Source: Selaginella moellendorffii (taxonomy: Eukaryota; Plantae; Lycopodiophyta). Taken from it: 64,000 nt of DNA. This document shows, piece after piece, positions 11,172-64,000 of the stretch. How positions within the stretch are numbered: the stretch's first letter is position 1; every line of letters begins with the position of its first letter. The notes below the pieces were generated by a model, which was not told the DNA's origin, ran no database searches, and saw nothing but the letters and a program-made list of their open reading frames with translations. The DNA is taken from positions 553,419-617,418 of the forward strand of contig NW_003314325.1 in NCBI RefSeq assembly GCF_000143415.4. Direction: 5' to 3'. A program made the position numbers and the translations under genes.

Positions 11172-11203
<32 letters not shown>

Positions 11204-13029: not shown

Positions 13030-13393
13030 GACCCCGAGGGCATCCCCCACACTTGGCGGTGCGCCCAAGCCAGCCCTTCCGGCCAAGGGTCCATAGCAAC
13101 TGAGATTAGGTGTCCCCATCTCACTCACCATGTCCTTGGTGCCACTTGCACCAAAGCGTTCAAGTTAGATATGCCGAGCTTTCACACTAAGCAATCTAAC
13201 CGTGCATCACGACTCCGAGGCATCCCTCGCTTGGCGGTGTGCCCAAACCAGTCTCCCCACTGAGAGTCCATGACCACCGAAATATGAGTGTCCTCATATT
13301 CCAAACCATCACCACGCCCTAGTGATTTGGGACTCGAACCCAAGCACTAGAGGGTCGGGACTCGAACCCAACCTCCGTATATGCATCTACGGA
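13030..13393 (-). ncRNA. Putative structured cis-acting RNA module (two junction copies plus T-loop hairpins) in element 3
   Basis: Homologous to 50228-50433 with compensatory base changes in several stems; see findings. Confidence 0.7.
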
Positions 13394-15901: not shown

Positions 15902-15913
15902 GCTCCGATACCA
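15902..15913 (-). promoter_or_regulatory. PBS, initiator tRNA-Met (element 3)
   Basis: Minus strand reads TGGTATCGGAGC, 3 nt inside the LTR boundary. Confidence 0.9.
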
Positions 15914-15916
15914 AAT

Positions 15917-17757
15917 TGTAAGTGACTGAATTTTCCATTCTACTTTAGTCACTTAACCACACCTCTGACCACTTGGAGGAGTCTCATTCACAACCTCCAT
16001 AAGTCCAATCCAGGACTTGGGACTTGCTAGCCCCAAGAATGGCATCCATGCCACTCAACATTTGCCCTTGGTCCAAGTGCTCCACGTGTCCGATCCCATG
16101 ACCGACACTCAAAGGTACCACCGACATAGCAGCCCATTACGCTAAGGCCATGCCCAATCACCTTTGCCACACTGGTAGTCCAATACCACTTGCATCATAG
16201 TCTTGGCTCTCCAAGTCTGGGCCATCTGTCCATGAGTGGTCATCCTAGATCCACTCCTTAGCATCCTTAGGATGCCCATAGACCGGGGGAATCGCCTTCC
16301 CCAAAGTCCCTTTGTCAGTTCCTACCAAGTCCCTTTCTGCCCCTGGCCGTGTTTGCCAACACTGCCACTGGATCGAGGCCCACAGGCCTGACCACTAAGT
16401 CCCACGGTCCTCTGGGACTTCCTCACCACACAACTGTGTCCTTGGTCACTACCCCAGAGGACTGCTCCTCTTCCCTTCCACAGTCTAGGCCTTTGGGACA
16501 ACATTTCGGAACACCGTGGCCTTACGCGAGCCACCTGGGTACTCTCCCCGCCTTTCGCCTTTAGGTGCTCTAGCCATGGGCTTAGAGCGAGGTTCCGTTG
16601 AGCCACGCCTGGTATCCAAGTAGGTAGTGCCACCCACAATTGGACTGGGAGCATCGGCCAGTCGATCTCCCGGGGGAACTAGAGCCGGCTCTTGAACACT
16701 TCACCAAGCTACCCTGCTTGTCGGTTCGTATTCACTCTAGTCTTGGACTTCCCAGTGGTCAGTTCCTCACCCAACACTGGGTCTAGCATTCCTGGGCCAA
16801 ACTGGCCTTTCCTGGCCAAACTGGCTCCACTGCAGTCCTCCCCCTTACTATACTTTTGGAGCTCACCAAACCCCCCAGGGTCTGGGAGACGAACGCTTTG
16901 GGCTTTCACCCTCTCAGGCTCCGGACTCGGACTCGGACTCGGACTCGGACTCGGACTCGGACTCGGACTCGGATTCGGACTCGGACTCGGGCTCGGGCTC
17001 GGTCTCGGCCTCAGCCTCGGTCTCGGTCTCGGTCCCGATCTCGGTCTCGGTCTTGGTCTTGGTCTCGGTCCCGGTCTCGGTCTCGACTTCGGACTCCATC
17101 TCGGACTCCATCTCGGACTCCATCTCGGACTCCATCTCGGACTCCATCTCGGACTCCATCTCGGGTCCATCTCGGGTCCATCTCAGACTCCATCTCGGAC
17201 TCCATCTCGGGTCCATCTCGGACTCCATCTCGGACTCCATTTCGGGTCCATCTCGGGTCCACCTCGGACTCCATCTCGGACTCCATCTCGGACTCCATCT
17301 CTGGTCCATCTCGGACTCCACCTCGGACTCCAACTCGGGTCCATCTCGGGTCCACCTCGGACTCCACTTCGAACTCCATCTCGGGTCCATCTCGGGTCCA
17401 CCTCGGACTCCACTTCGGACTCCATCTCGGACTCCATCTCGGGTCCATCTCGGACTCCACTTCGGACTCCAACTCGGGTCCATCTCGGACTCCACTTCGG
17501 ACTCCAACTCGAGTCCATCTCGGACACTCCCATGTGTCATGTGTTGGTCCTTTTGGGTCCCTTTTTGGAGCCTCGCTTTTTACTCGCTTCGTGCTTGTTC
17601 CTCGAGCCCTTCTTTGGGAGTTCCACTCCCGCTCTTGACTTTTCAAGTCGGAGCTTTTGGTCCAAACGTGTTACGCTCGTTTGGCTCTCGCTTCAGCCAC
17701 TACCACGTGGCACCCTTTCCGGCTCCACTTTGGGGCCTAGGGATTTTGTGTCTCACA
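15917..17757 (-). repeat. 5' LTR of element 3 (1841 bp)
   Basis: Direct repeat of 10068-11866; the extra length comes from the tandem array at about 16919-17530. Confidence 0.95.
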
Positions 17758-17762
17758 GCGGA

Positions 17763-20420: not shown

Positions 20421-21303
20421 ATCTTCCATTATTCCGAGAGAAGGGGATGATGTGAGGGCCAAGTGTACAGTTACAATGCCGTATACTAATATTAGCGTAG
20501 TGGGATTTTGGTAGCCATCGGATTGGTTTCAATTTGGACCACTCGCTCCTATATATAAGGTAGGATTTTTGGGCTAATTGATATGCATATTTTCTGTATT
20601 CTCTTTCCATATTCCAAGCACTTACAAGACTAGATAATTTCATTAAAGGATTATTTATCCTAAATTCTATAAATTTTTTTAAAAAATTAATCCTATTTGT
20701 CCTTTTCATTCTTATAATTTGATGATAAATCCTTGTGCTTAACAAAAATCTTCTCTGAATTATTGCAACTACTTTGTTGAAAAATGTCATTCCTGATAAT
20801 CTATATTTTTAGATTTGAGTTTGATTATTTATTATTCCAAAAATAGTCACATTTATAGCTAACATTAAAAATCAATTTTAAAAACTGATTAAATAATATT
20901 CTATAATCTAGAAAAGTCAATTTTTAAATATAAAATAATTTAAAATGGTTAATAAAGCTAATGTTAAATATTTAGAACTATTGTTAAACTTGCACAAGAC
21001 AATCCACAAAACCTGGTTGTCAATGCGCGGAATTTGGGGCTGCTGGAGCGGCAAATCCTCATGGACAATCTCATCTAGGTCAAAATATAGCTTTTCATGT
21101 GCAAAATATCATATACCACGTGGCATTTATAGTTTGGTTCTCATAACCTTTATAAAGAGCCTGTAATGAGACCGAGTTTAGGCGGTTTTGGATCGTTTAT
21201 GAAAATTACCGTGTATAACAAAGTGAATCATGCAAAGCGACTTGCAGTGTTGTGAACTAACACGTCAGGTACTACACGCCTACGTGGCAAAAACACGTGG
21301 CAG

Positions 21304-31123: not shown

Positions 31124-33125
31124 TCAACAGAGAAGCCGCCTAGTTCTCCTGGAAGACATGTCCGACCTCATCCTCTTGCAAAGCTTCTCCAGCTCCGACA
31201 CCTTGGCCTGCATCTTGTTGATATCCGACTTGAGCTCTTCGTTTTGGCGAATGATCAGTCCAAACTCGGGCGATGGCTGATCGACAGCGCTAGGAGCGGC
31301 GGAAGGATGATTCACCGCAGGTACTGGTGCTTCTTTGTATCTCGAGCTGTCACTCACTCTCAGTCCTTCCTTGAAGAAGCAGTGATCGATGGTGTCTCTG
31401 AGCTTGGCTTGCTGGAGAAGAAGAATCTGGAGTGCCAATCGTGCTGGGAACCGTGGGTTTTGCGCAGCATGCTTGCATCCCTCGAACGACAGCTTCTGGT
31501 AATTCACCACCTTGCAAAGTTCCATGGTTTCGGACTCCGAGACTGCTGGATGTGCCTGCTCCATGCGACAAACGTTCCATGGTGAGCGAGCTTTTAGTTG
31601 CAAAGTTTCTTCTTCTAACGTGAGTTTGCAACAGGAAAGAAGAACACTTACCTGCAGATACAAATCCAAAGCTCGGTAGAGCCCGTCGTGCATGAGCCTG
31701 GCCGAGTCCGGCAGTGCTTTGGCCACTGACTTAAACTTGAAAGGCTTAAGCTGTGGATCCGCTGCGATCTCCACCAGGTATTTATCAATCAGATCCGCAA
31801 CTTTTGTCAGCGAGTGCTCGAACTTTGTCAGGGCCCTACGGAAGGACGATCCTGACGGTGGCTGAGAAGCCATGATAGGACCGTTGATTGGAGTTGGGAA
31901 AGTCATCTCCGAGAAGATGTCTTGATCGCTCAGGAACCTGTCAATCAGCCTCAGGACGAGATCAACGTCGTAGAGAGAGCCACTTCCAGTCGGCCGCAGT
32001 GGAATGACGATGTCGTCCAGGGAAGCTTTGTCCAGCTGGTGGCCGATCATCTTCTCCAGCTGCTTCCGGCACGAACGTCCCGAGTTGAGAGCCGAAGTAA
32101 CTCGTAGCAATCCAAACAGAGAAGAGCAGGGAGCCGAGCCGTGATCTAAGTGTCCCAGCAGTGCGATGACCGTCTCCAGAAGCTCACGCTGGACCTTTTG
32201 CGTGTACTTCTGGAGGATGTGCTCGTCCCTGGTGGTGGAAGCGGTCGACCTCTGGTGGTGGGAATGGTAGCCGAGCGTTGGGAGCGCGGTCTGGACGTAG
32301 TGAACCAAGAACCTGGCCAGGATCCGGTTGTCCATGTTGTTGGAGATCATCGCCTTGACAATTCTCTCCATGAGATACATGGAGAGCGAGCAGACGTCGT
32401 CGAACCACCAAGTTCTCGAGAGGCGTTTGTTGTTGGCGCTGCTGCTCTGGTTTGAAGATGAATCCGGAGAGGTGGAGCTCGTCGGACTCTGGCAAGTGGA
32501 GCTGATGGTGGAGGCTTTCCAGGCCAGGGACTCGACGCACCTGTGGACGATGTGCGTCTTCTCCGCGTAAGGCAGCACGGGCTCGCAGCTCCGGAGGATG
32601 AGCAGCACCTCGTTCCAGCTCCAGAACACCAAATTCTGTAAGAAGTTCTCGGTTTCTTTGATCAGATTCCTGGGACTAAACTCCTCTGTCATTTCCATGT
32701 ACTCGGCGATGCAGCGGAGGAGAGAGACGTTGGCGGCCGTAATGTGGAAGCCTCCGCCGCGTGGAGATCCGCTCGAGTGCCAGTAGCAAAACCGAGCTGC
32801 GAGCTCGAAAGCCTGCGGGCCTCCTGGAAGATCGTGAAAGGCAACACGCAAGGCATTGACGCGACAAGCTGTGAGAATCGTTGTTCCTCGGATGATCTTG
32901 GCGAGGCGTCCACATCTATTGACCAGAGGATCCTAGAGCAAAGAGAGATCAAAGTAAGTCAAAGTTTTCTATCGCTCGTTTGTTCACGCTAGGTGTTGGA
33001 TGGATTCTATCTAACTGGTGTCTACTCACTTGTGCCAGGACGAAAGTGTGCTCTCCGTTCACTTCGACCTCCAGGAGCCTGTGCATTGGATCTTCGAGGA
33101 AGAGCTCCTGCTGCTTGTTCTTCAT
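31124..33125 (-). CDS. BTB/POZ-NPH3 family (NRL) protein
   Basis: LEVEVNGEHTF, DLPGGPQAFELAARFCY, WWFDD, LYDVDLV.R, HDGLYRALDLYLQ|AHP, KLSFEGCKHAAQNPRFP, C-terminal coiled coil; two introns. Confidence 0.92.
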
Positions 33126-33359
33126 CGTCCCCGCGTCGCCCTCTACCTCGATCGATCCATCCCAGCTCGCTGCCGTTGTTGCTAGCTTCTTAAATCTCCA
33201 GCGAGTTCCCGGAGGGAATCAAGGGGAGGGACGAGAAAACGGTGGAGCAAATCGTGTTGCGTAAAATCGATCTCCTTTGGGAAGTTTCAAACACTAGTGG
33301 GTGGGAAAAAATTTATTAAACCGAACTTAACAAAAGGTTACGTTAAGCCAGAAACTATT

Positions 33360-33431
33360 TGCTCTCAGTGAGGATCGAACTCACGACCTTTCGCTTACGA
33401 AGCGAACGCACTACCACTATGCTATGAAAGC
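33360..33431 (-). tRNA. tRNA-Thr(CGU)
   Basis: Minus strand GCTTTCATAGCATAGTGGTAGTGCGTTCGCTTCGTAAGCGAAAGGTCGTGAGTTCGATCCTCACTGAGAGCA folds into a cloverleaf with anticodon CGT; T6 run about 50 nt downstream. Confidence 0.95.
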
Positions 33432-33512
33432 ATGACAATGCGTCCTTGATATGCCAGCTAATCGAATGCTAAACCAGCTATTTGTCATCGATTTTGGGGA
33501 AGAGCTTAGCCC

Positions 33513-41226: not shown

Positions 41227-42225
41227 TTAAGCCAGAGCTGGCGATGCTCGAGGGAACACCAGCAAGCCTTTGTCTCTATAACTCTCCACAGAGTCTTTCA
41301 AGCACTCCTTGAGCGGCCGGAACTTCAACCCAAGCTCTCGGCGGATCTTCTCAGTGGAGATGACAAAACGCGCCGCCCTCTCGCCGCCAGTGACCATCTT
41401 GGACGGCAACCGCGCCGCCACCTCTGGCGGCACAACCTCCCGCAGCACATCGATCAGCTCCGCCCTGTGGAGCGAGCTCTCGGCACACAAGTATCGTCCG
41501 CGAGCTCCCTGCCTCTCGAAAGCCTCAACATGAGCCAGAGCAACGTCCCTTACATCGACGTAGGCCTGGGATCGGTTCAAGTATCGCTCAAACTTCGTGT
41601 TGATCAAACGAAGGATGTGAGAGCTGCTCGCGTTTTGCCATGGCTGCAACACCGGGCCGAGAGTAACACTTGGATTTATCACCACCAAGTCCAGCTCACT
41701 CTTCATGGAGATCTGCCAAGCAGCACTCTCCGCCAGCGTCTTTCCCAGGCAGTACCACTCGCCGGTCTCTTCCATAAACTCGAGGCTGCTCCAGCACTGC
41801 TCGTCGATCGGGGCGCTATCGCCGCGGGAGGGATCCAGGTACATGGTCCCAATCGTGGAAGTGAGCACCACTCTCGTCACCCCCGCGCTGGAGCAAGCCC
41901 GCATCAGATTCACGGTGCCATCGACGATGGGCTGGACGATCTCAGCGTGGGGATCGCGGGTAAGCTTGGCCGCCATGGCGCAGGCGACGTGGAAGACCCC
42001 GTCGCAGCCCTGGACCCTGGCCTCGATGGCGCTGCTGCTGCTGAGATCGAGCTTGACGATGGTGAGGCGATCCGGAGCGCCCGGAAGCTGCTTGAGATGC
42101 GCGAGCTTGAGCTCGTCGTGGGGATCGCGCACGGCGGCTCGAACCTGGTAGCCTCGATCCAGGAGAATGCGGACGATCCAGGAGCCGATGAAGCCGCCAG
42201 CACCCGTTACCGCCACTGTCGGCAT
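41227..42225 (-). CDS. Cinnamoyl-CoA reductase-like SDR, intronless, 332 aa
   Basis: VTGAGGFIGSW, GCDGVFHVA, EWYCLGKTLAE (CCR signature NWYCYGK-like), YVDVRDVALAH, GRYLC. True start probably M72 of the listed ORF. Confidence 0.92.
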   Translation of the reverse strand: MPTVAVTGAGGFIGSWIVRILLDRGYQVRAAVRDPHDELKLAHLKQLPGAPDRLTIVKLDLSSSSAIEARVQGCDGVFHVACAMAAKLTRDPHAEIVQPIVDGTVNLMRACSSAGVTRVVLTSTIGTMYLDPSRGDSAPIDEQCWSSLEFMEETGEWYCLGKTLAESAAWQISMKSELDLVVINPSVTLGPVLQPWQNASSSHILRLINTKFERYLNRSQAYVDVRDVALAHVEAFERQGARGRYLCAESSLHRAELIDVLREVVPPEVAARLPSKMVTGGERAARFVISTEKIRRELGLKFRPLKECLKDSVESYRDKGLLVFPRASPALA

Positions 42226-42275
42226 GCTTGCTTTTCGTTTTAGGTTTTCTGTTTTGCAAAGCAAAAGGAGACACG

Positions 42276-43188
42276 ATGACCTCCGAAGCTCTGAAGATGA
42301 TCCACCTGGTAGTGACTCTTGGATTGAATTCTTGACGAGGATTATATATAGGTGCGGCATGCTGAGGCTGAACACAATGGTTTCCATTCGCCGGGCCATG
42401 TCTTCGATCCGGTTCTCAAGCCCGCTGGCTGGAAGCAAGTAAGAGAAATAGAAAATATAACAGGATTTTACAGTCGGGTTTTAGGTGGAGCAACTCCGGA
42501 AGCATATTGTAGCCACGGGCTTGATGCGTGAAGTTAAGCTAGTTGTGGTTTCTCCTTTGACGCGGTAAGCACAGGACCAGCGCTTTCAGGACATTACAAA
42601 CGGCTGTAGGTGTGTTTGGGGTGCGGCATGGCAGCGAACGAATCTCCAGTCCACCGCCTCTTGTTGCCTTGGACCTGTGCAGGGAGCTCATGGTACGTTC
42701 AGTTCATGCATCACTGAGATCTTTTGTGTTTTTGTGTTTGCCAGATTCCTTCTGGAGCCACCAAGAGGAGGTCCATTAGTGAAAGCAAGTTTCAATTTCC
42801 CGAAGTGGATTTTTCGCAGGTGGCCATTTTTTCTTTCTTTCATATTATAAATTGTGATTTACTTTTCATAGATCGAGGATGATGAAGACGTGCTGTGGAA
42901 ACCCAACCGAGAATCAAGGGAGTCCTTTGATGCACGGCGGAGATCTTTCTTGCAATGGTAAATCAAACTCTTATGACTGTTTTCAGCAGTTGCCTTTTGA
43001 GCAGGTTGACGTTTCGTGAAGAGAAGAACATCGCGGTTGTTTCCCATGGCGCCTTTCTCAAAAACCTGGTGAATAGTCGTGATGAAGATGGGTCAAGATT
43101 TTGTGGTGACCAGAAAACCTCAAACTTTTCAAATTGTGAGCTTTTCTCCATCGCTCTTCATCTCAAGCCAAGTTCGTCGCTGTGCTAA
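42276..43188 (+). CDS. Phosphoglycerate mutase-like histidine phosphatase, multi-exon
   Basis: MTSEALKMIHL|VRHAEAEHN across a 43-nt intron (42309-42351), FDPVLKPAGWKQ, LVVVSPLTR, FPEVDFSQ|IEDDEDVLW, IAVVSHGAFL, FSNCEL. Confidence 0.85.
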
Positions 43189-49016: not shown

Positions 49017-50165
49017 TGTAAGCCACAAATTTTTCCTTTCCAATTTGCCAGCTTACCTTGTTTATCCGTCCAACACTGCCTTGGCTTTTGCTAAGTTCCC
49101 TCGCCAAGGTTCTCGCCTATGGTACCAGCTCCTACTTGGTTTCAGCTACTCACTGCACGAGCAACGGAGTGTTAGCCATCCTTCCACGGATTCCCAAATC
49201 ACTCCCAATCCCCCTCCCCGGGTTAGACTGGACTTAAGGTTCGGCTACACTCCCCGCAAGCACAAGCAGCCAAGCACACCAAGCTTCCAGGTTCCTAACA
49301 TCCCTTGGTACCACAAGACTTGATCATGGGACCCTCTAAATCCCAAGTCTTGAGTGCAACACTTGCTTCGGGATGCCGGGGCGAAACACCGTGGCCTAGC
49401 GGCCCGGTATGGGTACCTCTCGCCCCCCACTTCCATCCCGAAGGAAGGCCCAAGCCCCTAGGAAGGGCGAGGACCAATGAGCCGCATGGTACTCAAGTGG
49501 GGCACCACTCCACATGAGCCGGGAGCATCGCAATCGGTTTCCCTTTCGGGAGTGGGAGCTGCTCTTGAGCACTTCCTTGGATGGCCCCTCCGGCACCAGC
49601 CAAGTCCATGCTCACTCCCACCCAAGGCCCCTCGGTCCCAGTCTCAACCTCAAGTCGGTTTGGAAGCCCAACTGGAGAGTCCCTTCAAAACTGGTTCCTG
49701 GACCTCACTATCCCTACTATACTTTTGGAACCCCCTGCAGCCCCCCCCCCCTGGGAGACGCACGCTTTGGGCTTTCACCCCTTGACCCGTATTAGTATTT
49801 GGACTTAGTCTCTGGCTCGATCTCGGACCCGATTTCGGATCCGACTTCGGATTCGGGTTCGGACTCGATCACGGACTCGATCTCGGACCTGATCTCGGAC
49901 CCGACCTTGGACTCGACCTCGGACTCGGTCTCGGACCCGATTTCGGATCTCGGACTCCGTCTCGAACTCGGTCTCGAACTCGGACTCGAACTCGGTCCCC
50001 GAGTCGGTCTCGGACTCGATTCCGGACTCTATCTCGAACTCGGTCCTAGAGTCGGTCTTGGACTCGATCCTCGACTTGGTCCCATCCGATGAACTCTTTG
50101 TCATTTCGGTCAAGCTTTTTGGGGATCCTTTAGTCTACGACATCTCGGGGAGTCGGTTCCTTACA
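49017..50165 (-). repeat. 3' LTR of element 4, with CTCGGA-type array at about 49808-50090
   Basis: Direct repeat of 55401-56549. Confidence 0.96.
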
Positions 50166-50227
50166 ACTCCACCACCCATAGAAGAAGTTCGATGCCCACA
50201 TCGAACGTCTCATTTTATCCTACGACT

Positions 50228-50433
50228 TGTTGACCATGTCTCCGGGGGCATCCCCCCACTTAGCGGTGTGCCTAAGTTAGCCTCCCCGGCCAAGAGCCCA
50301 TGACAACGGAATATAGGTGTCCCTATACTCCTCACCTCACCACGCCCTAGTATGGGGTCGGGACTTGAACCCAGCCTTGCTTTACTAGGGGGTTGGGACT
50401 CGAACCCAACCTCCGTAGAATACGTCTACGGAT
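50228..50433 (-). ncRNA. Putative structured cis-acting RNA in the 3' UTR of element 4
   Basis: Consecutive hairpins and a four-way junction, with compensatory changes relative to 13030-13393. Confidence 0.7.
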
Positions 50434-50568
50434 TCGACACCCCCGCGGGGAGTCGGGCGTAGTGCCCTATGCCTGGTCGACCTATCCAACCCATGCTAAT
50501 TAGCTTACCTTTGGCGCGCCTTCGGGTCCCAACATATGCCACTTGCTCAACTTTGCAAATTGATATTT

Positions 50569-53500
50569 TTAATTGAATTTTGCATAAGTACATAGAGTTC
50601 TGCCTTGCAGAAATTCCTCCACTAGATCTCGCGCGTTCGCTAGGTTCTCCTCCGGTTCCCATGTTGCTTCACAGTGTGGAAATCCTTTCCACTTCACATG
50701 GAACTCTCTCACCTCGCGTCCTTGTCGCTTGCTCTTGCGCGCATTGAGGATGGCCTCGACTTCGTATTCCTCTTCCCCTTGGATAACCTCAGGTAAAGGT
50801 CTCACTTGGCCCTTGCGAAGCGGATCCTCAAAGTACGGCTTGAGTAAGTTCACGTGGAACACTGGGTGCATCTTCCCCATCTCTCGAGGAAGTCGGAGTC
50901 GGTAAGCCACTTTACCGATTCGTGCCTCAATTTCATAAGGCCCCGCGAACCTGCTTAAGGAACTCAAGATCATATCATTTACAGGAATACATGCATCTTT
51001 ACCTTTGGGTCAACTTTCGGCTGATCCCACTTGGTAGCCTGAGGTTCTTGGTGTTCAGCCACACCTTCTCCCCAGCTTGGAACTCCACATCCCGACGCTT
51101 TTGGTTCGCGTACTTAGTTTGCCTTTGTTGAGCCCGTTCCAAGGAATCCCTCACTAGATTCCAAATGTTGAGTCTTTCCGCCGTGAATGCCTCCACTGCG
51201 GGTAACTCTCCATGATACTCGGCCACGCCGAGTTCCACAGGACCTTCAATAGCTCGCCCATTGATGACTTCCCATGGACTCACCCCGATGCTTGAGTGTG
51301 GTGAGTTGTTATAACACATTTCCGCAAGTCCCAAATGACTTACCCAGTCGGTCTGGTCTCCCGAGACATAGCATCGCAAATAATCCTCCAGCTGCCTATT
51401 CACCCTTTCTGTTTGTCCGTCTGTCAAGAAGTGTTAGTGCCATCAATCTTGACTTAATACCCATTACCTGTCTGTGGGTGATAGGCTGTGCTGAATTTCA
51501 ATTTGGTGCGATACTGTTCTAGGAGTGTCCTCCAGAACCTACTAGTGAAGATCTTATCTCGATCTGAGATAATCTCTTCCGGCCTTCCCCGCACTCGAAC
51601 CACTTGTTCGAAGAACAGCTTCGCCACACCTTCCACATCCACGTCCGTTGTGGTGGGTATGAAATGTGCCATCTTTGAAAATCGGTCCACCACCACGAAT
51701 ATCGCATCGAACCCCTCGCTTGGGGGTAGTCCCGTGATGAAGTCCATCGTAAGACATTTCCATGGGCGATCTGGAATTGGGATGCTTTGCAACAAGCCCC
51801 CACTAGCCTTAGTCACGGCTTTGACCTGCTGACATGTTGGACATGTCTTTACATAGTCTTGGACGTCCTTAGCCATATCTGGCCAATGGTACTTCCTCTT
51901 GAGTAAGCCCATCGTCTTGGGCACTCCGCCGTGTCCCGCAAGAGGTCCGTCATGACACTCTTCTAAGGCTACCTTCCTTAGTCCCCCTTCTGGAACATAC
52001 ACCCTCGTTTGCTTGTAATAAATGAGTCCGTTGCGTTCCGCATAGCCCGTTTTCTCTTCCGTTGGCAACTCACCTCTCTGGTGAGCTTCCCGCGCCTCCA
52101 GATTCCTCAACAACACTTCTTGTGATAGACCATCATTCTCATATGCTGTCCGCACATCGTCCCAGAAGGTTGCTGTTGTGCTGGAGATCGCCAACCTCAA
52201 GCTCGCTTTTCGACTTAGCGCATCTGCCACGATGTTGCTCTTCCCAGGCTTGTACAGAATCTCGCAATCAAACTCGGCCAAGGCATTGGCCCACCGACCT
52301 TGTTTCCCTCTCAGGTCGGGTTGTGACAAGAAGTGTTTCGTTGCCACATTGTCCGTGTAAACCTTGAAGTGTCTCCCAAGGTAGTGTCGCCACTCCTTGA
52401 GCGCCTTGACCACCGCAAACAATTCCTTCTCGTGGGCAGGCCACTTCCGTTGAGCCTTGTCCAGCTTCTTCGAGAAGAACGCTACTGGATGGTTGTCTTG
52501 CTTCAAAACTGCGCCCAACGCAAAGTCCGAAGCATCCGTGTCTACCTCAAAGTCCTTACCAAAATCTAGTGATGCCAACATCGGAGCCTTCCTCAACTTC
52601 CCTTTGAGGTGGACGAATGCCGCCTCGCATTCCGCTGTCCATACCATCTTCCCTTTTCCCGTTTGATCCGTTAAGGGCAGAGCTACTCTCGAATAGTGTC
52701 TGATAAACTTTCGATAGTAGTTGCATAGCCCCAAGAACGCCCTCAACTCATGTACATTCGATGGTCGCTCCCATTCCTGGATCGCTTGGACCTTCTCCGG
52801 GTCCACCTTGAGCCCGTCCTGGCCCACCACATGCCCGAGAAACTTTACCTCTTGCTGAGCAAAGTCACAGTTGCTCTCTTTAGCATACAGTTTATGTTCC
52901 CTTAGTTTCTCAAACACCTTCGCCAAGTGTTCGGCATGCTCCTCTAGCGTCTCGCTATAGATCAGGATGTCGTCAATATAGACGACCACGAAGTGATCCA
53001 GATAGGGTACAAAGATGTGGTTCATCAATGCCGAAAACGTTGCCGGCGCATTGCACAGCCCAAAGGGCATCACCAAAAACTCAAAGCTCCCATACCTCGT
53101 TCGACAGGTTGTCTTCTCGACATCTTCCTCGGCTACCCTGATCTGGTAGTATCCTGACCTTAGGTCAATCCTCGAGAAGTATTTTGCCTTTCCCAACCTA
53201 TCGAACAGGTCCTCAATCCTGGGCAAAGGGTACTTGTTCTTCTTTGTATACTTGTTGAGCAACCGGTAGTCTATGCACATGCGCATAGATCCATCTTTCT
53301 TTTTCACAAATAATACCGGCGCCCCATACGGCGACTTGCTCAACCTAACATACCCTTTGCCCACCAACTCCTCTAGTTGGCACTTGAGCTCCTTGAGTTC
53401 TTTTTCGTTCAAACGATAGGGGGGACGAACCACCGCCTCAGCACCCTCGACCAGCTCAATCTTATGTTCTATCGGTCGTGCGGGGGGTAACCCCGCCGGT

Positions 53501-55341
53501 AGCTCCTCCGGCATGGTATCCTGGAATTGGTCCAACACCCGCTGGATCACTAAAGGTACTTCTTTCGTTCCTGTCTTTTTGTCACTCTTCACCGAGAGTA
53601 AGCACAAAAAGGCTGCCTTAGTTCCTTTAGTGAGTTGTCCTCTCGTGGACACCAGGTTTAAGCAAGATTCTTTAGCCTTGCTTTGCCCTACCTTTAGATC
53701 CTGGGCCTCCACCCTAGATCTTCTTCCTTGGGCATTCGCCAGTACCACAAGGTTCCTACCTTGTCCATGCAGGGCTACCACAAACCGATTGAACCAATCC
53801 ATTCCGAAGATCACGTCAAATCCCGCCATGTCCAACACGGTGAAATCCATGTCTACTTTCCATGTCCCTACTTCGACTTTCGCTTGTCGAAGTACCTCAT
53901 CGGTGCTTTGGCTACCTTGAACAAACTCTATAGTCCTTGGTTCGCCTAGCCGTTGCACCGTTAGTCCGGCTTGCCGGACTATGTTTGCAGCCACAAAATT
54001 ATCCGAAGCACCCGTGTCAATAAGGATCTTAACAAAGCTACCTCCGAGCTTCCCTCGGAGGGCTAGTAGATGTCGCGAACGACTCTCTACCAAAGTTGCT
54101 CGTGTAATGAGTAACTTTGAGTTAGGGACTGGATCACATACCTCATTTTGGACTTCACCCGACTTGATGGCCATATTGACTCTGGCCTTCTTCGGGTAGG
54201 GACATTCCCTCGAAAAGTGTCCCGCTTCACCGCAGTTGTAGCATATGTTGTTTCCCACGCTGCTATACGACTTGACCTTCTTATCCGTGGGTTTGTCTCT
54301 TTTCGCTTGACTCCCCCACGTACTTGCTTGCTGGCCACCGGATTTGCCTTTCCAGAACCCCGAGGACTCATTCTTAGAGAAACTCTTCTTGAATTTCCCC
54401 CTGCTATATGTTCCCCTTGGTTTGGCCCCTTTGCTAAACGTGGATCCCGACCCCGTCGTGTTCCCCTTTCGCAGGTTATCATTGAAATGCACCTTGATGG
54501 CCGCATCCAACGCTTCCTTGTAGTTGGTCGGGTTCCAGCGCATCACCTCGCCGCGAGCCCAGGTTTGCAAACCTGATATGAAGGCATGGAACGCATCCAT
54601 ATCCCCCATGTCCGTGACAAGTATCCTCTTTGCCATGAACCCATTCACATATTCCTGGATGGTTCCAGTCTGCTTCAGCCTACTCAGTTCATCCCTCAGA
54701 TGCAGAGTGGCATTCGGAGGAACATATGTTGCGCGGATCCTCGCCTTCATCATGTCCCAAGTGACCACCGGTCCTTCGTTGGCCTCCGTTGTTCTCCACC
54801 AAGACTTGGCATTATCTGCCAAGTATGGTTTTGCACATGGGACCTTCTTCGAGCTTGGTAACCGCAACGCTCGGAAGTAGTCCTCCATATCATAAAACCA
54901 ATCCTCCACCACCTTATAGTCATTCACTCCCTTGAAGACCGGTGGGGGCTTTGGTTTGTACTTGGGAATTGCCTGAGGGACTGATTCCACTTCAGTCTGT
55001 TCGACCTTGTCTGGTTTTGCCTCAGTCCCTGCCGAAGGGTCCACACCTTCTGCGCTGCCAGCATCCGCAGTCTTTCGCCTTTTCTTCCGCTTCTCGTCAC
55101 GCTTTAGCTTGCGTACGAGAGTCTCCAGCAGGGCATTGGTCTACACCAATTGACCTTCTAGAACGTCCAATCGAGCCTTGGACGACCGAACCTCGCCACC
55201 GGACTCCTGTTTGGAAGTTTCCTCACTGGAGTCCTCCTCATGCAAGGATTCCTCATCCATAGCCTCTTGTTCAACCGGAGGCTCCAGCTCTGGCGGAGGT
55301 TCCGTCTCCACCTGGGTTCGCTTACGCCCTGCCCTTGCCAT
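50569..55341 (-). CDS. gag-pol: Gag-Pol polyprotein with chromodomain; two introns in integrase; one in-frame TAG at 55141-55143
   Basis: [61 protein letters not shown]...VKWKG...TWEPEENL. Exons 55341-51468, 51420-51003, 50950-50569. Confidence 0.92.
50951..51002 (-). other. 52-nt spliceosomal intron in integrase (intron 2)
   Basis: AG|GTAAAG...TTAAGCAG|GT; removal restores RKLTQ-R-FAGPY. Confidence 0.85.
51421..51467 (-). other. 47-nt spliceosomal intron in integrase (intron 1)
   Basis: CAG|GTAATG...CACTAAC...TTGACAG|; removal restores [14 protein letters not shown]. Confidence 0.88.
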
Positions 55342-55385
55342 CTCCCAGCAATCCGCCTCTATCCTTCGCTAGAACTAAGGAAGAG

Positions 55386-55397
55386 GCTCCGATACCA
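55386..55397 (-). promoter_or_regulatory. PBS, initiator tRNA-Met (element 4)
   Basis: TGGTATCGGAGC on the minus strand, same as element 3. Confidence 0.9.
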
Positions 55398-55400
55398 AAT

Positions 55401-56549
55401 TGTAAGCCACAAATTTTTCCTTTCCAATTTGCCAGCTTACCTCGTCTATCCGTCCAACATTGCCTTGGCTTTTGCTAAGTTCCCTCGCCAAGGTTCTCGC
55501 CTATGGTACCAGCTCCTACTTGGTTTCAGCTACTCACTGCACGAGCAACGGAGTGTTAGCCATCCTTCCACGGATTCCCAAATCACTCCCAATCCCCCTC
55601 CCCGGGTTAGACTGGACTTAAGGTTCGGCTACACTCCCCGCAAGCACAAGCAACCAAGCACACCAAGCTTCCAGGTTCCTAACATCCCTTGGTACCACAA
55701 GACTTGATCATGGGACCCTCTAAATCCCAAGTTTTGAGTGCAACACTTGCTTCGGGATGCCGGGGCGAAACACCGTGGCCTAGCGGCCCAATATGGGTAC
55801 CTCTCGCCCCCCACTTCCATCCCGAAGGAAGGCCCAAGCCCCTAGGAAGGGCGAGGACCAATGAGCCGCATGGTACTCAAGTGGGGCACCACTCCACATG
55901 AGCCGGGAGCACCACAATCGGTTTCCCTTTCGGGAGTGGGAGCTGCTCTTGAGCACTTCCTTGGATGGCCCCTCCGGCACCAGCCAAGTCCATGCTCACT
56001 CCCACCCAAGGCCCCTCGGTCCCAGTTTCAACCTCAAGTCGGTTTGGAAGCCCAACTGGAGAGTCCCTTCAAAACTGGTTCCTGGACCTCACTATCCCTA
56101 CTATACTTTTGGAACCCCCTGCAGCCCCCCCCCCCCCCCTGGGAGACGCACGCTTTGGGCTTTCACCCCTTGACCCGTATTAGTATTTGGACTTAGTCTC
56201 TGGCTCGATTTCGGACCCGATTTCGGATCCGACTTCGGATTCGGGTTCGGACTCGATCACGGACTCGATCTCGGACCCGATCTCGGACCCGACCTCGGAC
56301 TCGACCTCGGACTCGGTCTCGGACCCGATTTCGGATCTCGGACTCCGTCTCGAACTCGGTCTCGAACTCGGACTCGAACTCGGTCCCCGAGTCGGTCTCG
56401 GACTCGATTCCGGACTCTATCTCGAACTCGGTCCTAGAGTCGGTCTTGGACTCGATCCTCGACTTGGTCCCATCCGATGAACTCTTTGTCATTTCGGTCA
56501 AGCTTTTTGGGGATCCTTTAGTTTACGACATCTCGGGGAGTCGGTTACA
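55401..56549 (-). repeat. 5' LTR of element 4
   Basis: Direct repeat of 49017-50165. Confidence 0.96.
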
Positions 56550-56997: not shown

Positions 56998-59900
56998 TGT
57001 CGCGAATGTGACTTCAGGTATCGAAAGTTACCTGTCGGCTAGTCCTTTCGGATATTCTTTCTTACTGCCACGATGGCAGGAGGTCGGTATTGCTGGGCTT
57101 GTTATCAGTCTCCGCCTAAGCTAGTTGAGAAACTGATCATCACATGTGCACTTAAACCGGAAGGGCACTAAGGAAGGAAATCCTAAGTTGTCATTTAGTC
57201 AAGCAGACTTGACACGGTGATGAGAAACTCATGATGTGAGCTTGCACTTGCTAGTGTTGGGAACCCCCGTGATATTGAGCTTGGTCCCTCAATATCGCTA
57301 GATGATAGCTTACTGTGTCTGCCAAACACCCTCGCTATCATGCCCTTTTGTGTTAGTTTCATTTCGGTCCCAAATACTATTTATGGAAAGTGTCTAGATT
57401 TGCTCATTTGGCATATCTACGGAATGTAGAAATCGGCCTGAACACAATGGTGTTCGTCTCGTGTCCAAATTCGCATTCTAAGGATATTCCATATTTAGTA
57501 AGTTTCGAGCTTGTCCCAGAGACTAACTCCTGATACTAAGGGAGGCTTGGGGTGAAAGCCCAAAGCATGTGTTCCTAAGGGGGGGGGGGGGGGGGGGGGG
57601 GTNNNNNNNNNNNNNNNNNNNNNNNNNNNNNNNNNNNNNNNNNNNNNNNNNNNNNNNNNNNNNNNNNNNNNNNNNNNNNNNNNNNNNNNNNNNNNNNNNN
57701 NNTCCGGCTTGGGTCTAAGCCCAAGTTCCATTCCATGCTAGCTGGTGGAGTACCCATATCTTCACATTAGGCCACCGGTATGCCGAAATAGCGCCAGACT
57801 TCGTTTGGCTCTGTTTTGCATGCTGGTTCTGGCATTAGGATGCTGGTTGCTCCAGGACTGTTCCAAGTCGCTCCGGGCTCCTGTCCCTTCATTCCTTGGG
57901 CTATATGCTCAGGAGTTGCTCCGTGGTCCAGTTCCATCACTCCTTGGCGTCACGCTTGGGAGTTTGGCACCGTTCCTTCGTTCAGTGGCCTAAGGCCCTG
58001 AACCTCGGGTTCCTATGGACACGTGGCACGGACACGTGGTATGTGACATGTGGCATCTGTCATGTGGCACAAAGAGGGTTTAGGTTCGGCTTCGTGGTGT
58101 TATCCTATGGTAAATCACCATAGGATAAAGGGTCAAAACCACGTGCGCTACATTTGGTATCAGAGAATGAGTCTCAGCGAGTACTATTCAATGAGATTGG
58201 GCAACTAGTCTCGTTGCATACGCAGAGATGAAAATAATGATCCGAGTGGGTACACGTTTGGGTGCAAAGACTTCGCAATCGTTCCTTGGGTATGGATTTG
58301 GTTAGCTTTTGTACCGTATTATATGAGCTTGCTCGTGGGCTCATAAGAGGGATTGAGTTGCTCCGTTTGCACGAGTTTTCGCTTGGGCTCGTGAGTGAGG
58401 CACATTAGCAACTCAAGGTTACACTTTGAGTTGGCAGGATTAATGTAAGCCTATCGATGGTTCCAGTGGTTCCATAAGTTGTTCCTTGTACCATACATGA
58501 AAGTAAACCTTCCCTAGGTTTGCTATGAGTGGCAAATAGGCTGGTTCGTAGCTGTTTAGCACGGCACTAGTGGATCCTTCCTAGGCATGATTACAAGTGG
58601 ATCAATTAAGATTATAAGGATTAGTCTATTGGTTCAAGTAGTCATAGCCGTGCTCTCTCATAAACTTTTCTTCGATTGAACTGAAGGCAGTGCGAAAGCA
58701 AGCTTGAGGTTTGGTCAAAGATGAGACCGAAAAGAGAGTCATCGGGGACGGAGGATCAGATACGTAAATCATTTTCTCTTCTTGGAGAAATGATCTGCAA
58801 CGAGGTGTTAACTCATTGCTTGTGTTCACATCATGCAATCAAGAGTCCCTATCTTGATGCATGTTGGAGATGGTGGTCTTACAATGGTGAGTTATGGGAT
58901 GGATAGCGGTGAAGCACTAATCCATTTTGTCTAGGCTTGCTATTAGAAGATTTGGGTTGCAATGCTCAATTCTTTTCCAGGGAACCTTGCTATTGCTCCT
59001 TGAGTAGCTTGGTGTTGGATTAGTGTTGAGATTGGTCAGAAAGAAAATGGCATGAGCTTGTCTGTGTTGTGAACAAAAGTTAGTGGTGTCGGGTGTTGTA
59101 AATCTCTATCGGTGGGGTGTGGCATTTATATTGCATTTTGTCGAATCGAGTTGACACTTGATATTCACATAAACCTTTGAAGTAATGACATGGGCATTAC
59201 TCATAGTGTTGCTTGATTGATGATCAAGTCATTGTGATATTTATATCATATCCATGTGATAGTGAGCAATGTGTTTACGAAGTTGCTTGGTTAAATGATG
59301 GTCAACCCCAAAGTGGTTGATGGAGAAGCTAGTCTACTTCCACGAAGTAGCATTGTAGTAGCTTTGACTGGATTCTCGATGGTGGTCCATTATGCTAAGC
59401 TTTAGTTGGTACTTTGTTCCTTGAGTTGCCCATTAAGGTGTTAGAAAAAGGTTGTAGCATTCATTTGCTATAGCTCGTCAGTTGATCCGTTAGCACTTGG
59501 AATAGATTGTTGGATGGAGAAAATGTGTAGTTGAGACATTGACATCACTAACACTTATGTTAGTGGAAGTGGCATTGTTATTTCGAGTGATGAGGAAGTT
59601 TTCCTTAGAGCTTGATTTTCCATGTCATTTTTCTTGTTAGTGTTTTGGTTTCACATTGGATCTTGAAGGTGATTGAAGAAGAGTGTTAGTGCAATGTGGA
59701 TATCCGAAGATGTGGTCTTCGTGATCAAGCCTTGGGTGTTCACTTTGCACTTTGTGGATATCGGTGTTGGATGTTGGAAAAATGGGCAAAGATGTTCGAT
59801 GCTTAAGCATATTGCTGGATCATGAGAATTTGTGTTGAGGTGAACCTATGTGAAGTTGTTGGTAGGAGGAAGTTGGTTGAGTCTTGAAAGTTTGCAATCC

Positions 59901-62900
59901 TGGACTAAGAGTCATTCTTTCTCTAGGATGGAAATTTTCCACAAATTTTCTTAGACTTTTCCAATGGCTGATCTGTTGGTCACTTTGCTCGAAAACCATT
60001 CTGTTTTTTTTAAGCCAGTACAAACTAGTGAAGAGGTTGGAGTTGACTTTGATTGGCTTGAACCTTAGTAAATAGTTTGTATGATGCGGCCCGAAAGGGA
60101 TGCTAACTTTTGGGGCTAAGGCAATTGAGTTGGATAGAGTCTGGAGTTGGTGTAGAAAAGTGGCCGTTACACTTTTCTAAGAAGGGTGACTCTTGTGCCT
60201 TTCTTTTGTAGCATTATGCTCGGTGGCAGGTTGCACCTTGCATTTTGTTAAGACTCTATGAGAGTAGTGAGCTCTTATTGATCTTGACTTGGTCTTGGTG
60301 GCCTTGCGCCTTGGCTGAGGATGGTGATGTCCAACTTAGTTGTTTGAGGTTGAGATGTTGGTACCCGTACTATAGCTTTGTCTATGAGGAGGTTGTGTAC
60401 CGATATGAGTTCATCTCATGGTTTTCACTTTTGTTTCGGTTGAGCGTTGATCATGCATAGCTAGCCTCTTCAAGGCATGCTCAGAGCTAGTGGTAAATGT
60501 TTGAGTGAGCTTATTGCAGTTGAGTTGGATTTGAGTGGTCATTTAGTTTGTGCTTGTCTATGAACTTTTATCTTGTACCTGGGGTATCACGTTCTTGTTG
60601 GACGAGTATTTAACTTGGTGACAAGCATTGGTGTTTGGGTCTTGTGAAGGCAAGTTGAGGAGTGATTGTTAGTTGCTTTGCGACTAGTGATTACTTGTAG
60701 ACTTCATCAAGGGCTGTTGACACTTGCTTTGCTCGATGATAATTTAGCAGTGATGGGCTTGCTTTACCGGATGGTGTTGTGGAGGATCGTGTCGTTAGAC
60801 ATACATGAGTTTTCCATGTTGACATGTCGACTCTACCTCTGTCGATATCATTTGGTTACATTTAGTCTGTGGTGTTGGATTTCATTTAGTCTTGGATGTG
60901 GTGATTCACTCCTTGAGGAAGTGTTATCTGTAACTGAGTATTGTTAAAGAAATTGGTCTTGGATATTGAGTAAAATATCTCCGACTTTGGTTAGCTTGGT
61001 TGCTAGAGAGTTTTGAGTGGTGATCACTCTTGCTTTCTGCTAGCTTTGTTTTGTTGTTGATGGCATTGAAGTGATGCCTTGTCGTTGACATTATTGAGGT
61101 TGAGATTTAAAGTGAAATGAGATGTCTCTCCTTAGGATTGATATTGAGTTTCATTAATCTTAATGAAGATAGTGTTGATGATTTGGCTATGGCTTTATAT
61201 TATTGGCATTCATACATTTGCTAGTTAGCAACTATGTTGATGTTCAAATGAACTGAGTGGCAAGTTTGAGTTAGTTGTGTTCTAAACGAGATTATTTAGT
61301 AGGGGTTGAGCTTTGAGCTTTTCCTTGAAAAGTGATTTAGTCATGGACTATGCTAACTCTACAAGTGGGAGAGTTAGTGATCGATGTTGGAATATTTTGA
61401 ATCCTTATGGGATTTTAGTTGAAATATATCAATCATTGATGATTCTTCTTGTGCTTGCTATAAAGTGAATTACGTTTTCTATAGATGGATTCATGGAGGA
61501 TCGTTTGGTGATCACTTGTTGAGTATAACTTTGCTATGCTTAGCTTTTGGATTGATGCAGAAATACTCTTCATTAGCTTTGCATTATAAAGTTTGGCTTA
61601 TGGATATATTGAGGAGGATATTGTGGGTTGCACCATGATTTCTTCTTTAACATTGAAGTTGGTTCATGCAAGACTTGTGATCATTGTTAGACAAGATATG
61701 GCTATAGGCTTCTTCAAACTTTTGGTTCTTTGAGTTTTGTGCTCATTATTAGAAGTTGTTGGGGGAAGGCATTTTTGGCTCTTTAGCTTCGATGTTGAAG
61801 TTAGTATTTACATCTAGCAATCATTGGTGATGATTAACTATCATGTTGGATAGTTGATTATCCTTATCAAGAGTTTTGCTTGATTATTGTTGTTGATATA
61901 AACTGAGTTGCTGTCCTTCGGGATGGTAAATTCTTTCTTCAACGATGATTATGCATCTCTTTATTGATGGGATGATTGATGATCTTTTATGATGGTTAGT
62001 TATTCTCTTTGATGGCTTATGGTTTTTTTCGCATTACCACATGTTCTTTGTGGTTTACTCTGGATTGGTCTTGGGTTTGAGACATCAGTAGGATGTTGCT
62101 AACACTTGCTTGAGCAACTCTGGTTCCTTGGTATTGTTGACTGAGATCTATTTAGATTTGCTAGTGCAATAGTTGATATGAACAAGTGTTTGTTTGCTTT
62201 GCAACATTCATTTTGTTCTGTTGATTATTGCTCGAGTTAGTTCTCATAGATTCAAATGTTATGGCCTTCGGGTGAAACATTCGCGAGCATTGTGCTTGTT
62301 ACTCAATAATATTTTGTGTTCTTTGAGTTATCCCTAGTCCGTTGTTGGCTTACTGTCTGCTATCTTCGGTAGTTATGTTTCATCATTGCATTTACTTGAT
62401 GATATACTTGCTATTGAATTTTGTTGGATGGTGAATCATGTGTTTACCAATTATGATGATCTTAGTGGTTCCTATCTACTATAATACTAGTTTATCAGAT
62501 GATAACTTATTTGGAATACTTTTGTGTTCTAATCTAAGATATATTCACTGATAATTAATCTCTAAAATATCATTGTCTATGACTTTGATATAGTCCATAT
62601 ATTAATCTTTGAGTTTGGGCCAGTATAGGCAGACTGGCTTCGGCACTTCGTGTGCATGGTGAAATCTCTAGTCATGGGGTAGCTACTGTCGACTGGTCAC
62701 ATAACCCGCCTCTCTGTCGATGTTCCTTATTCCGTTCAAAGGGCGTGACCGTGTAAACAACTCTAATTGCCTGTTTACAGTAGTCTATCTAAACCTTACC
62801 GACGGGTTTGGTTTCTTTGCTCAGGAGGGTTAGGGCCTCTGGCTTCTCTCTCTATGTCCCTGCGGGTAGGGCATATCACACTTTTGTAGCTGAGTGACAC

Positions 62901-64000
62901 CCAGAGCAGCAAGGGTGGCTGACTCAGTTGGTCATTTCCTTGTCAGCGACGGCCGGAAGGTGTCTGAGTGGGTAGCGCATCCGCGTTAGACAAAGAGGTT
63001 ACCCCCTAACTCATTTAAGTCGGTGCATTTCTCATATAGTGTGAGTACCGTGAACTTTTTCTGGAGTTGTTTCCTTGGCGGTATTCTAGACTCGAGTATG
63101 CATCGACGAGGACGTCGATCTTCCCCAAGGGGGGGAGAGTGTCGCGAATATGACTTCAGGTATCGAAAGTTACCTGTCGGCTAGTCCTTTCGGATATTCT
63201 TTCTTACTGCCATGATGGCAGGAGGTCGGTATTGCTGGGCTCGTTATCAGTCTCCGCCTAAGCTAGTTGAGAAACTGGTCATCATATGTGCACTTAGACC
63301 GGAAGGGCACTAAGGAAGGAAATCCTAAGTTGTCATTTAGTCAAGCAGACTTGACACGGTGATGAGAAACTCATGATGTTGGCTTGCACTTGCTAGTGTT
63401 GGGAACCTCCATGATATTGAGCTTGGTCCCTCAATATCGCTAGATGATAGCTTACCGTGTCTGCCAAACACCCTCGCTATCATGCCCTTTTGTGTTAGTT
63501 TCATTTCGGTCCCAAATGCTATTTATGGAAAGTGTCTAGATTTGCTCATTTGGCATATCTACGGAATGTAGAGATCGGCCTGAACACAATGGTGTTCGTC
63601 CCGTGTCCAAATTTGCATTCTAAGGACATTCCATATTTAGTAAGTTTCGAGCTTGTCCCAGAGACTAACTCCTGATACTAAGGGAGGCTTAAGGTGAAAG
63701 CCCAAAGCGTGTGTTCCTCAAGGGGGGGGGGGGGGATGTAGGGGGTTCCAAATGTATAGTAGGGATAGTGGGTAGGTCGGGCATGGCCGACCAACTTGAG
63801 GCATAGTCTAGCTCCCGCTTGCATGCCTGTCCTTGTTCTGCGTCCGGCTTGGGTCTAAGCCCAAGTTCCATTCCATGCTAGCTGGTGGAGTACCCATTTC
63901 CTCACGTTAGGCCACCGGTATGCCGAAAGAGCGCCAAACTTCGTTTGGCTCTGTTTTGCGTGTTGGTCCTGGCATTGGGATGCTGGTGCTCCAGGACTAT
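56998..64000 (+). mobile_element. Non-autonomous (LARD-like) LTR element (element 5); 3' LTR runs off the window
   Basis: 5' LTR 56998-58152, PBS TGGTATCAGAG 58155-58165, ~5-kb interior with no ORF, PPT AAGGGGGGGAGAG 63127-63139, 3' LTR from 63140 near-identical to the 5' LTR. Confidence 0.93.
57603..57702. other. Assembly gap (100 N) after a poly-G run in the element 5 LTR
   Basis: N run; the missing sequence should correspond to about 63738-63842 of the other LTR. Confidence 0.98.

Follow-up and report, generated by a model that had tools for sequence, protein, structure and literature searches.

We will describe a stretch of 64,000 nucleotides from the lycophyte Selaginella moellendorffii (assembly GCF_000143415.4, contig NW_003314325.1, positions 553,419–617,418), which we call the window; all positions are those of the window. 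It contains a few host genes, one of them 98% identical to a known S. moellendorffii protein, and several LTR retrotransposons, three of which are discussed here as elements 3, 4 and 5. Two of them, a coding element (element 4) and a non-coding one (element 3), share a structured RNA in their 3' region, read on the minus strand. The features are collected in Table 1. Region 2870–20626 is made of gypsy elements with no chromodomain match, nested one in another, and element 3 sits inside the outer one.

Table 1. Features of the window; arms, helices and junctions are predicted
Feature	Position	Strand	Remarks
Element 3, LARD-like non-coding LTR element	10068–17757	-	LTRs of about 1.8 kb, 96.2% identity; GCGGA target duplication
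Pre-PPT hairpin and polypurine tract of element 3	11867–11908	-	
Core copy E3b	13021–13123 (with linker to 13133)	-	GACA hairpin and four-way junction; duplicated without T-arm domain
Core copy E3a	13202–13302	-	GACA hairpin and four-way junction
T-arm domain of element 3	13310–13420	-	P1 possible, not in the predicted fold
Arms of element 3	A1 13395–13412; A2 13374–13393; T-arm 1 13354–13372	-	
Arm A4 of element 3	13317–13352	-	With T-arm 2, 13327–13343
NPH3-family exon	31124–32932	-	
Host tRNA-Thr(CGT)	33359–33432	-	
Cinnamoyl-CoA-reductase-like gene	41227–42480	-	
Element 4, chromodomain Ty3/gypsy, 7.5 kb	49017–56549	-	LTRs of about 1149 bp, 55401–56549 and 49017–50165
Pre-PPT hairpin (50187–50206) and polypurine tract of element 4	50166–50206	-	Shared with element 3
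Core copy E4	50229–50331	-	GACA hairpin and four-way junction
Four-way junction of E4	50229–50307	-	Closing stem of about 14 bp; arm 2 (purine loop), arm 3 (8-base loop L3), arm 4 (GAUG loop)
GACA-tetraloop hairpin of E4	50308–50331	-	10 bp
Conserved linker with UGGUG	50332–50344	-	Candidate pseudoknot partner of L3; overlaps 3' strand of P1
T-arm domain of element 4	50338–50464	-	Predicted five-way junction, closed by helix P1
Long arm A4 of element 4	50345–50390	-	Capped by T-arm 2, 50357–50375
Arms of element 4	A1 50436–50454; A2 50412–50432; T-arm 1 50392–50410	-	
ORF, integrase C-terminal SH3 and chromodomain	50569–51009	-	The 3' untranslated region begins at its stop
Primer-binding site of element 4, tRNA-Met type	55386–55397	-	Same 12 letters as element 3
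Element 5, non-coding LTR element, tRNA-Met type PBS	56998–63998	+	5' LTR with a 100-base N gap

Element 4 has matches to Gag with a CCHC knuckle, PR, RT, RNase H, integrase, SH3 and chromodomain. Its two LTRs are 98.2% alike and it is flanked by a TTATG target duplication. Its coding sequence has in-frame stops near 55143 and 51456, and the end of the integrase is found in two further short ORFs. In a quick tree of 65 rows, from which loci with short or weak matches were omitted, it groups with liverwort and seed-plant proteins (SH-aLRT 99); no labelled Galadriel reference was included in this tree. Element 4 fits SM1-Galahad, of the Galadriel clade, a match made by description and not by sequence. 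SM1-Galahad is described as an element of 7.5 kb with LTRs over 1 kb which contain poly-G tracts, a tRNA-Met PBS, a chromodomain in a separate short ORF and hundreds of copies (PMC3350952); element 4 is like it in size, LTR length, poly-G tracts, PBS type and detached chromodomain ORF. Section 2.1 of that description mentions neither a structure in the 3' UTR nor a non-coding partner.

Element 3 is non-coding, without trace of coding sequence. No Gag-Pol is detected in its interior (11867–15916) by tblastn with 11 queries at E ≤ 1, a Pol profile has no match among 111 of its peptides (best E 3.1) and its longest stop-free frame has 110 codons. The sequence-only reading, an earlier annotation made from the letters of the window, had considered its coding sequence decayed, which these searches do not bear out. 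LARD elements have a conserved RNA structure, with which the highly folded interior of element 3 may be compared. Element 3 also has the features of the LARD definition: a length above 4 kb, two LTRs, PBS, PPT, a target duplication and no coding domains (PMC13570524). It differs from a LARD in having one defined, duplicated module which also occurs in a coding family that can be identified as its partner. Retrozymes are also non-coding, highly self-paired plant LTR elements which borrow Ty3-gypsy machinery; they are reported to have no more than the PBS and PPT boxes in common with their partners and to carry hammerheads in their LTRs (PMC4918200), whereas element 3 has no hammerhead and shares an additional RNA with its partner.

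Folding is unusually strong throughout the interior of element 3, so that folding scores within it are no evidence by themselves. The mean z-score of this interior is −2.9 for the minus strand and −3.5 for the plus strand, with 19–20 of 33 windows at −2.5 or below, compared with about 0 in host DNA and −1.1 in the coding region of element 4; the stretch 13420–13900 reaches −8.6. This stretch includes 27 bases (13770–13796, minus strand) which resemble, in the sense orientation, what we take to be the 5' part of the plant initiator tRNA. A wheat small RNA given in PMC5411081 is equal to it in 18 of 19 letters; searches of Rfam and IMG/VR did not confirm the identity. It may be a captured primer fragment.

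The core of the shared RNA is found in three copies on the minus strand, which we call E4, in element 4, and E3a and E3b, in element 3. In each copy a hairpin with a GACA tetraloop is followed by a closing stem of about 14 bp, which leads to three arms. Their loops are GGGGA, GGGGAG or GGAAG in the first arm, purine-only in all three copies, GCRCACCG in the second and GAUG in the third. A pattern made of the loops only has exactly three matches in the window and none in 100 shuffles; a covariance model built from the three copies finds no fourth one in the window (next match E=0.27). The sequence-only reading had reported these copies with their stems and loops, and all of them are where it placed them. 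It had also stated that the stems change while pairing and loops persist, and this is borne out: RNAalifold on a plain MAFFT alignment of the three copies recovers the GACA hairpin and the four-way junction, with both sides changed in 9 of 38 pairs. In this structure 96.4% of the cells pair, a value that collapses to 37–50% in controls with slid partners. The covariation score was reached by none of 500 shuffles, which is not to be taken as a probability with three related sequences.

A structure fitted by hand to these same three copies, in which the register of arm 2 is arbitrary, has 10 double changes, 5 single changes and 2 broken pairs between E4 and E3a (38 pairs). The corresponding figures are 6, 8 and 1 between E4 and E3b (39 pairs) and 13, 4 and 1 between E3a and E3b (37 pairs); an equal number of changes placed at random breaks 7–17 pairs. 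The one-sided changes are G-U wobbles, which pair on the element-sense strand only, so that the core probably acts as an element-sense RNA. Its folding z-scores are −2.8, −2.3 and −2.9 on that strand, compared with −0.9, −1.6 and 0.0 on the opposite one. Among 29 windows of element 4 none has a better folding score than the core, which shares the first place.

Some details of the fold had to be amended. Arm 2 is present as it had been quoted, but its outer pairs use bases that the closing stem and arm 3 need as well; in E4 and E3a the hand-fitted helices of the junction therefore follow one another without unpaired linkers. The closing stem is found in the copies, with a G-A mismatch in E4. 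The fold had been assigned to all three copies: in E3b all 38 hand-fitted pairs are possible, yet its minimum-energy fold is a different one (−53.2 versus −42.4 kcal/mol for the junction) and its junction arms have probabilities of only 0.01–0.11. Variants common in the family at 13037 and 13108 change wobbles of E3b into Watson-Crick pairs. We consider that the window holds a real structured RNA, modelled on three copies, with predicted helices that change and loops that persist.

The element is predicted to be larger than first reported: in our model it has about 240 bases and combines the four-way junction with two tRNA-like arms. The core is where the sequence-only reading had placed it, but a T-arm domain upstream of it had been overlooked, so that the whole element reaches to 50464 in element 4 and to about 13420 in element 3. 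The 13-base T-loop motif of tRNA has four matches in the window (0.14 expected), all in the T-arm domains. In all four the T-loop consensus is a predicted hairpin loop; the T-arms have stems of 5–7 bp, with a stem probability of 0.64–0.95, and the tRNA loop. The predicted order is A1, A2, T-arm 1, A4 with its T-arm 2 cap, and P1 which closes the domain. All four arms belong to the predicted fold of both elements, P1 to that of element 4 only (probability 0.79 versus 0.0). A comparison of elements 4 and 3 over 39 pairs gives 4 double changes, which lie in A1 and A4, 6 single ones and 3 broken pairs; random placement breaks 7–12 pairs, and a null with transitions only gives p 0.02–0.05, a weaker result than for the core. 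The topology suggests a tRNA with a long variable arm, opened at the D-loop. In the assembled reads of the element 4 family, 23 contigs with loose ends at 50384 run on into sequence that suggests a further tandem T-arm, and some members may carry three of them.

Core and T-arm domain are joined by a conserved linker. Its UGGUG and loop L3 form the sole 5-bp complementarity of a conserved loop that is found in all three copies, and L3 may dock on it as a pseudoknot. This possibility is suggested by the duplication of the linker, which accompanies the core in E3b while its P1 partner does not. Both sides are invariant, so that the pairing has no covariation support, and the candidate pseudoknot and P1 would compete with each other.

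When the interiors of elements 4 and 3 are compared by low-stringency blastn, only the PBS region, the RNA (twice in element 3) and the segment with the pre-PPT hairpin and PPT are common to both. The RNA lies in the 3' UTR of a chromovirus and is kept, with its core duplicated, in element 3, as the sequence-only reading had claimed. The longest exact matches between the two elements are within the T-arm domain, and all four runs of shared exact 14-mers are found in this domain, the linker or the PPT, of which a stretch of 17 bases is shared. The RNA is 74–77% alike between the elements; the LTRs are 64.6% alike over 728 nt. The RNA precedes the PPT by about 60 nt in element 4 and by 1.1 kb in element 3. 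The hairpin which precedes the PPT has a loop of 4 bases at 50187–50206 and 11888–11907 (minus strand) and at about 63102–63121 (plus strand, in element 5); its stem changes between families.

Both families occur in many copies: contigs from a single DNA sequencing run fall on the two regions in numbers of 6,665 and 18,704, a depth which does not represent a copy number. We classed 36 unphased variants in the motif, among 80 of the 114 listed. Those with a share of at least 5% keep pairing at 14 of 17 paired places, and one more falls on an existing mismatch; the pair-breaking ones are at 50298, 50464 and 13283. Rarer variants break pairs in 4 of 5 cases. These data give modest support to the structure, since at least half of transitions keep pairing anyway. 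A contig from a second organism spans 50117–50346 with 9 differences.

Element 5 is different. Its pre-PPT hairpin resembles that of element 4, and an 88-base motif of the LTR is common to the two (78%); the structured RNA is absent from element 5, according to the covariance model and a motif search in the window. The RNA had been called essential in the sequence-only reading, a claim which is not borne out, as another non-coding LTR element lacks it. Element 5 may depend on a different helper.

No family of Rfam 15 reaches its gathering threshold. The best match is tRNA-Sec, through A2 and T-arm 1, with 15.4 bits against a threshold of 47 (E=3.5), in agreement with the sequence-only reading, which had matched the RNA to no known family. 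A tRNA gene was discarded: a full cloverleaf is not found, and ARAGORN gives only the unrelated tRNA-Thr in the window. A viral 3' tRNA-like structure does not fit either, as the RNA is internal, upstream of PPT and LTR, and has no Rfam match of this type. The hammerhead core of retrozymes is absent in both motif regions, and element 3 has no Rfam match at E ≤ 1. The four-way junction form of the hairpin ribozyme has internal loops A and B, which the arms lack; the loop motif that we take to be typical of this ribozyme is also absent from the motif regions.

A homologue was not detected outside Selaginella-like sequencing runs, either in metagenomes, IMG/VR, phages and plasmids (the last two by blastn) or in 88 other gypsy loci. 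The core-loop pattern has 95 metagenomic loci without any homologue; judged from their sequence, those with the highest scores are dnaK-like genes in antisense, and no T-loop is found upstream in the 40 loci listed of the 95. In IMG/VR the core pattern gives 19 loci, none with the fold, and single-protein locus searches have no match. A scan for T-arm plus linker gives no match either. A double T-arm pattern gives 62 loci in IMG/VR, of which the majority are phage tRNA arrays (tRNAs are present in 28 of the 30 scanned). These arrays (L020–L081) have a peculiarity of their own: a free-standing second T-arm, a duplicated 3' half, is often found 10–30 bases past the T-arm of a tRNA, for example in L023, L024, L033 and L063 at 1501–1556.

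The alignment search gave 88 gypsy-like loci. Both covariance models find nothing significant in them (best E 3.3 and 0.075, both antisense in L254), and the core model with filters off has no match in 14 of the 88. This says little on close relatives, because none of the loci which entered the tree fell in the clade of element 4. In the SM-Tcn1 supplement, where line breaks may hide matches, the motifs are absent, with the exception of one T-loop-like 7-mer in coding sequence. Two coding gypsy elements have tRNA-like stretches in their 3' LTRs, with A- and B-box-like sequences in L183 (4830–4900) and a T-arm in L207 (3985–4010): they are Helenus-like units in autonomous elements. We also note that 79 contigs in prokaryote genome assemblies (L186–L264) encode a eukaryote-type gypsy Pol and are most likely contamination. 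Word searches of a paper collection, largely without subscription journals and without Repbase, gave no description of this RNA, nor of T-arm mimicry in the untranslated part of an LTR-retrotransposon genome. The data support a conserved cis-acting RNA without a match in Rfam. It is of a known kind, a cis signal of a retroelement, apparently undescribed, and its pairing of tRNA arms with a tight junction is unusual.

What may be its role? Since element 3 has neither a Gag-Pol match nor an ORF above 110 codons, it needs no translation signal. The islands which it shares with element 4 are the PBS, the RNA and the pre-PPT/PPT segment, the other two being known replication signals; this disfavours translation or self-cleavage and favours recognition by the machinery of the partner. 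A parasite needs its partner for export, stability, packaging, dimerisation and reverse transcription, and a dimer signal or a 3' PBS finds no consistent support here. For this reason we favour, tentatively and at somewhat less than an even chance, a recognition tag by which the Gag or Gag-Pol of the element would select its genomic RNA for packaging. The CCHC nucleocapsid would meet the purine, GACA and GAUG loops displayed by the junction, while the T-arm hairpins would offer a tRNA-like surface to Gag-Pol/RT or to a host tRNA-binding factor. Element 3 would have kept the tag in order to be packaged in trans, and might have doubled the core to compete for the Gag of its partner. The true helper may be another family, because element 4 itself is broken.

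Known systems give some precedents. Retroviral and Ty packaging signals are also branched RNAs, with an exposed purine loop to which the one predicted here may correspond, in elements with a CCHC nucleocapsid (PMC8096270, PMC4974528, PMC11381356), and a purine loop binds the Gag of MMTV (PMC8096270). Cis signals of Ty1 and Ty3 are reported near the genome ends, and the packaging of Ty3 depends on UTRs or POL (PMC4974528). In BMV, a positive-strand RNA virus, the intergenic box B of RNA3 is an internal T-loop motif in a plant RNA replicon which recruits the RNA as a template, selected by the replicon's own protein (PMC4083346); here such a link is predicted only, and two T-arms are found in a multi-arm domain with a four-way junction, in the 3' UTR of an LTR retrotransposon. 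On the other hand, mapped packaging signals are mostly 5', within the first 580 nt in Ty1 (PMC4974528), which counts against a 3' tag; they are mainly leader structures with loop palindromes, whereas the RNA here is 3', with tRNA arms and no conserved palindrome. The minimum-energy fold of E3b, the P1 helix not predicted in element 3 and the absence of the RNA from element 5 also count against it. Packaging and export are two of the four roles named in the sequence-only reading, and either may hold; retention by itself does not tell packaging apart from export, stability, transport or strand transfer.

The RNA could instead be a tRNA mimic read by host factors and not directly by Gag, which would stabilise, export or move the genomic RNA, for example towards meristem or spore-forming tissue. 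We find this doubtful, although several features agree with it: two T-arms have the stems and loop of tRNA, the succession of two arms, a T-arm and a long stem approaches the opened tRNA suggested above, of which tRNA-Sec is the nearest Rfam model, and the non-coding element would need such a signal equally. Element 3 also carries the initiator-tRNA-like piece, whose identity we assume. tRNA-like structures in 3' UTRs are reported to give mobility to plant RNAs, yet in one graft study most mRNAs which bear them were immobile (PMC8047152). Against this reading, the RNA falls below every tRNA threshold, it has neither free ends nor CCA, and the duplicated part is the junction core and not the T-arms. 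A stronger version appears rather unlikely to us: the T domain would imitate, inside the element, a circularly permuted tRNA which opens at the D-loop, has a long variable arm and bears a second acceptor/T minihelix instead of the CCA end, and together with the pseudoknotted junction it would route genomes through the host machinery for tRNA handling or RNA mobility.

The RNA might also organise reverse transcription, through dimerisation, 5'-3' cyclisation, placement of the primer on a 3' PBS as in Ty3, or the first strand transfer. Its proximity to the PPT of element 4 is in favour, as are the PBS segments described in the 3' UTR of Ty3 (PMC4974528), but in element 3 the PPT is far away. The sequence-only reading had listed dimerisation among the roles; a form of it driven by a palindrome appears weak, and a retroviral Psi/DIS self-complementary loop was rejected: a 4-base palindrome is found in one of the three copies of the window and none in E4 or E3a, and cofolding gains only about 6.5 kcal/mol in all three. 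A change in loop L3 at 13063 creates a 6-base palindrome in about half of the depth of E3b, and in E3b alone; it is also a plain CpG transition. Complementarity between motif and leader does not exceed 8–9 bases, in non-homologous places. The tRNA-like piece of element 3 pairs with the E4 motif no better than background (−13.7, compared with −16.5 for the 5% tail), a comparison that used the initiator-like piece and not the full host primer tRNA, and the motif has no complement to a T-arm. We consider such a role unlikely.

As a further alternative, the T-arm motifs may be B boxes of Pol III acting in DNA, either bound by TFIIIC or taken over with a tRNA/SINE promoter, as in Helenus; the shape of the hairpins would then be inherited from tRNA, and the junction would be just one of the many hairpins of element 3. 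The motif equals the box B core of Helenus (TRIMp3), which also has a tRNA-like sequence in an LTR retroelement, and one Helenus family is found in this same species with the same PBS letters (PMC10886601). The strong folding of the whole interior of element 3 also agrees. Helenus elements, however, are at most about 1.3 kb long, and their LTRs contain a complete tRNA-like unit, boxes A and B included, which is read as a DNA promoter (PMC10886601). Here the motif is found only in the internal 3' region of elements of 7.5–7.7 kb, with T-arms only and a structure that covaries, so that Helenus itself was rejected. By eye, Helenus-1_SMo is unlike our RNA beyond the T-arm. A near match to box A upstream of box B can be seen by eye in element 3 (13430–13440) and none in element 4. 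A DNA site would leave unexplained the double changes in the junction and in A1 and A4, the strand-specific wobbles and the presence of the core in element 4. We consider it quite unlikely.

A translation element for gag-pol, either a 3' cap-independent enhancer or an IRES-like module, is very unlikely. The GACA tetraloop and the four-way junction recall what we take to be domains of HCV-type IRESs, in which the order of domains is presumably different from the one found here. The position in the 3' UTR is that of plant virus enhancers (PMC5712577), but an element that has nothing to translate has retained the RNA and doubled it, by eye the two elements share no ORF downstream of it, and Rfam gives no IRES or CITE match. 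Finally, a self-cleaving ribozyme of a new class, which the sequence-only reading had listed, is highly improbable: the tight junction and invariant loops would suit it and plant non-autonomous LTR elements do contain ribozymes, but those of retrozymes sit in the LTRs (PMC4918200), no known core and no Rfam ribozyme at E ≤ 10 is found, and a cut here would part the PBS from the PPT and 3' repeat, severing the template of a high-copy element.

The way in which plant LTR retrotransposons select their RNA, and parasites gain access to the proteins of their partners, is poorly mapped. The basis of this dependence is stated as not known in section 4.2 of PMC10886601, and the packaging sequences of Ty elements are described as not precisely defined (PMC4974528). 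Elements 3 and 4 offer a natural deletion series: a non-coding interior of 4 kb shares only the PBS, the PPT region and this RNA with a coding partner. We infer its function from three copies; it is the retention in a non-coding parasite which singles it out. It gives a compact candidate of 240 bases, in a sequenced model lycophyte where the elements number in hundreds. If the stronger tRNA-mimic reading were true, it would be an address label in the genome of an LTR retrotransposon, directed for example to spore-forming cells or particles with RT, and parasites would compete by multiplying label modules.
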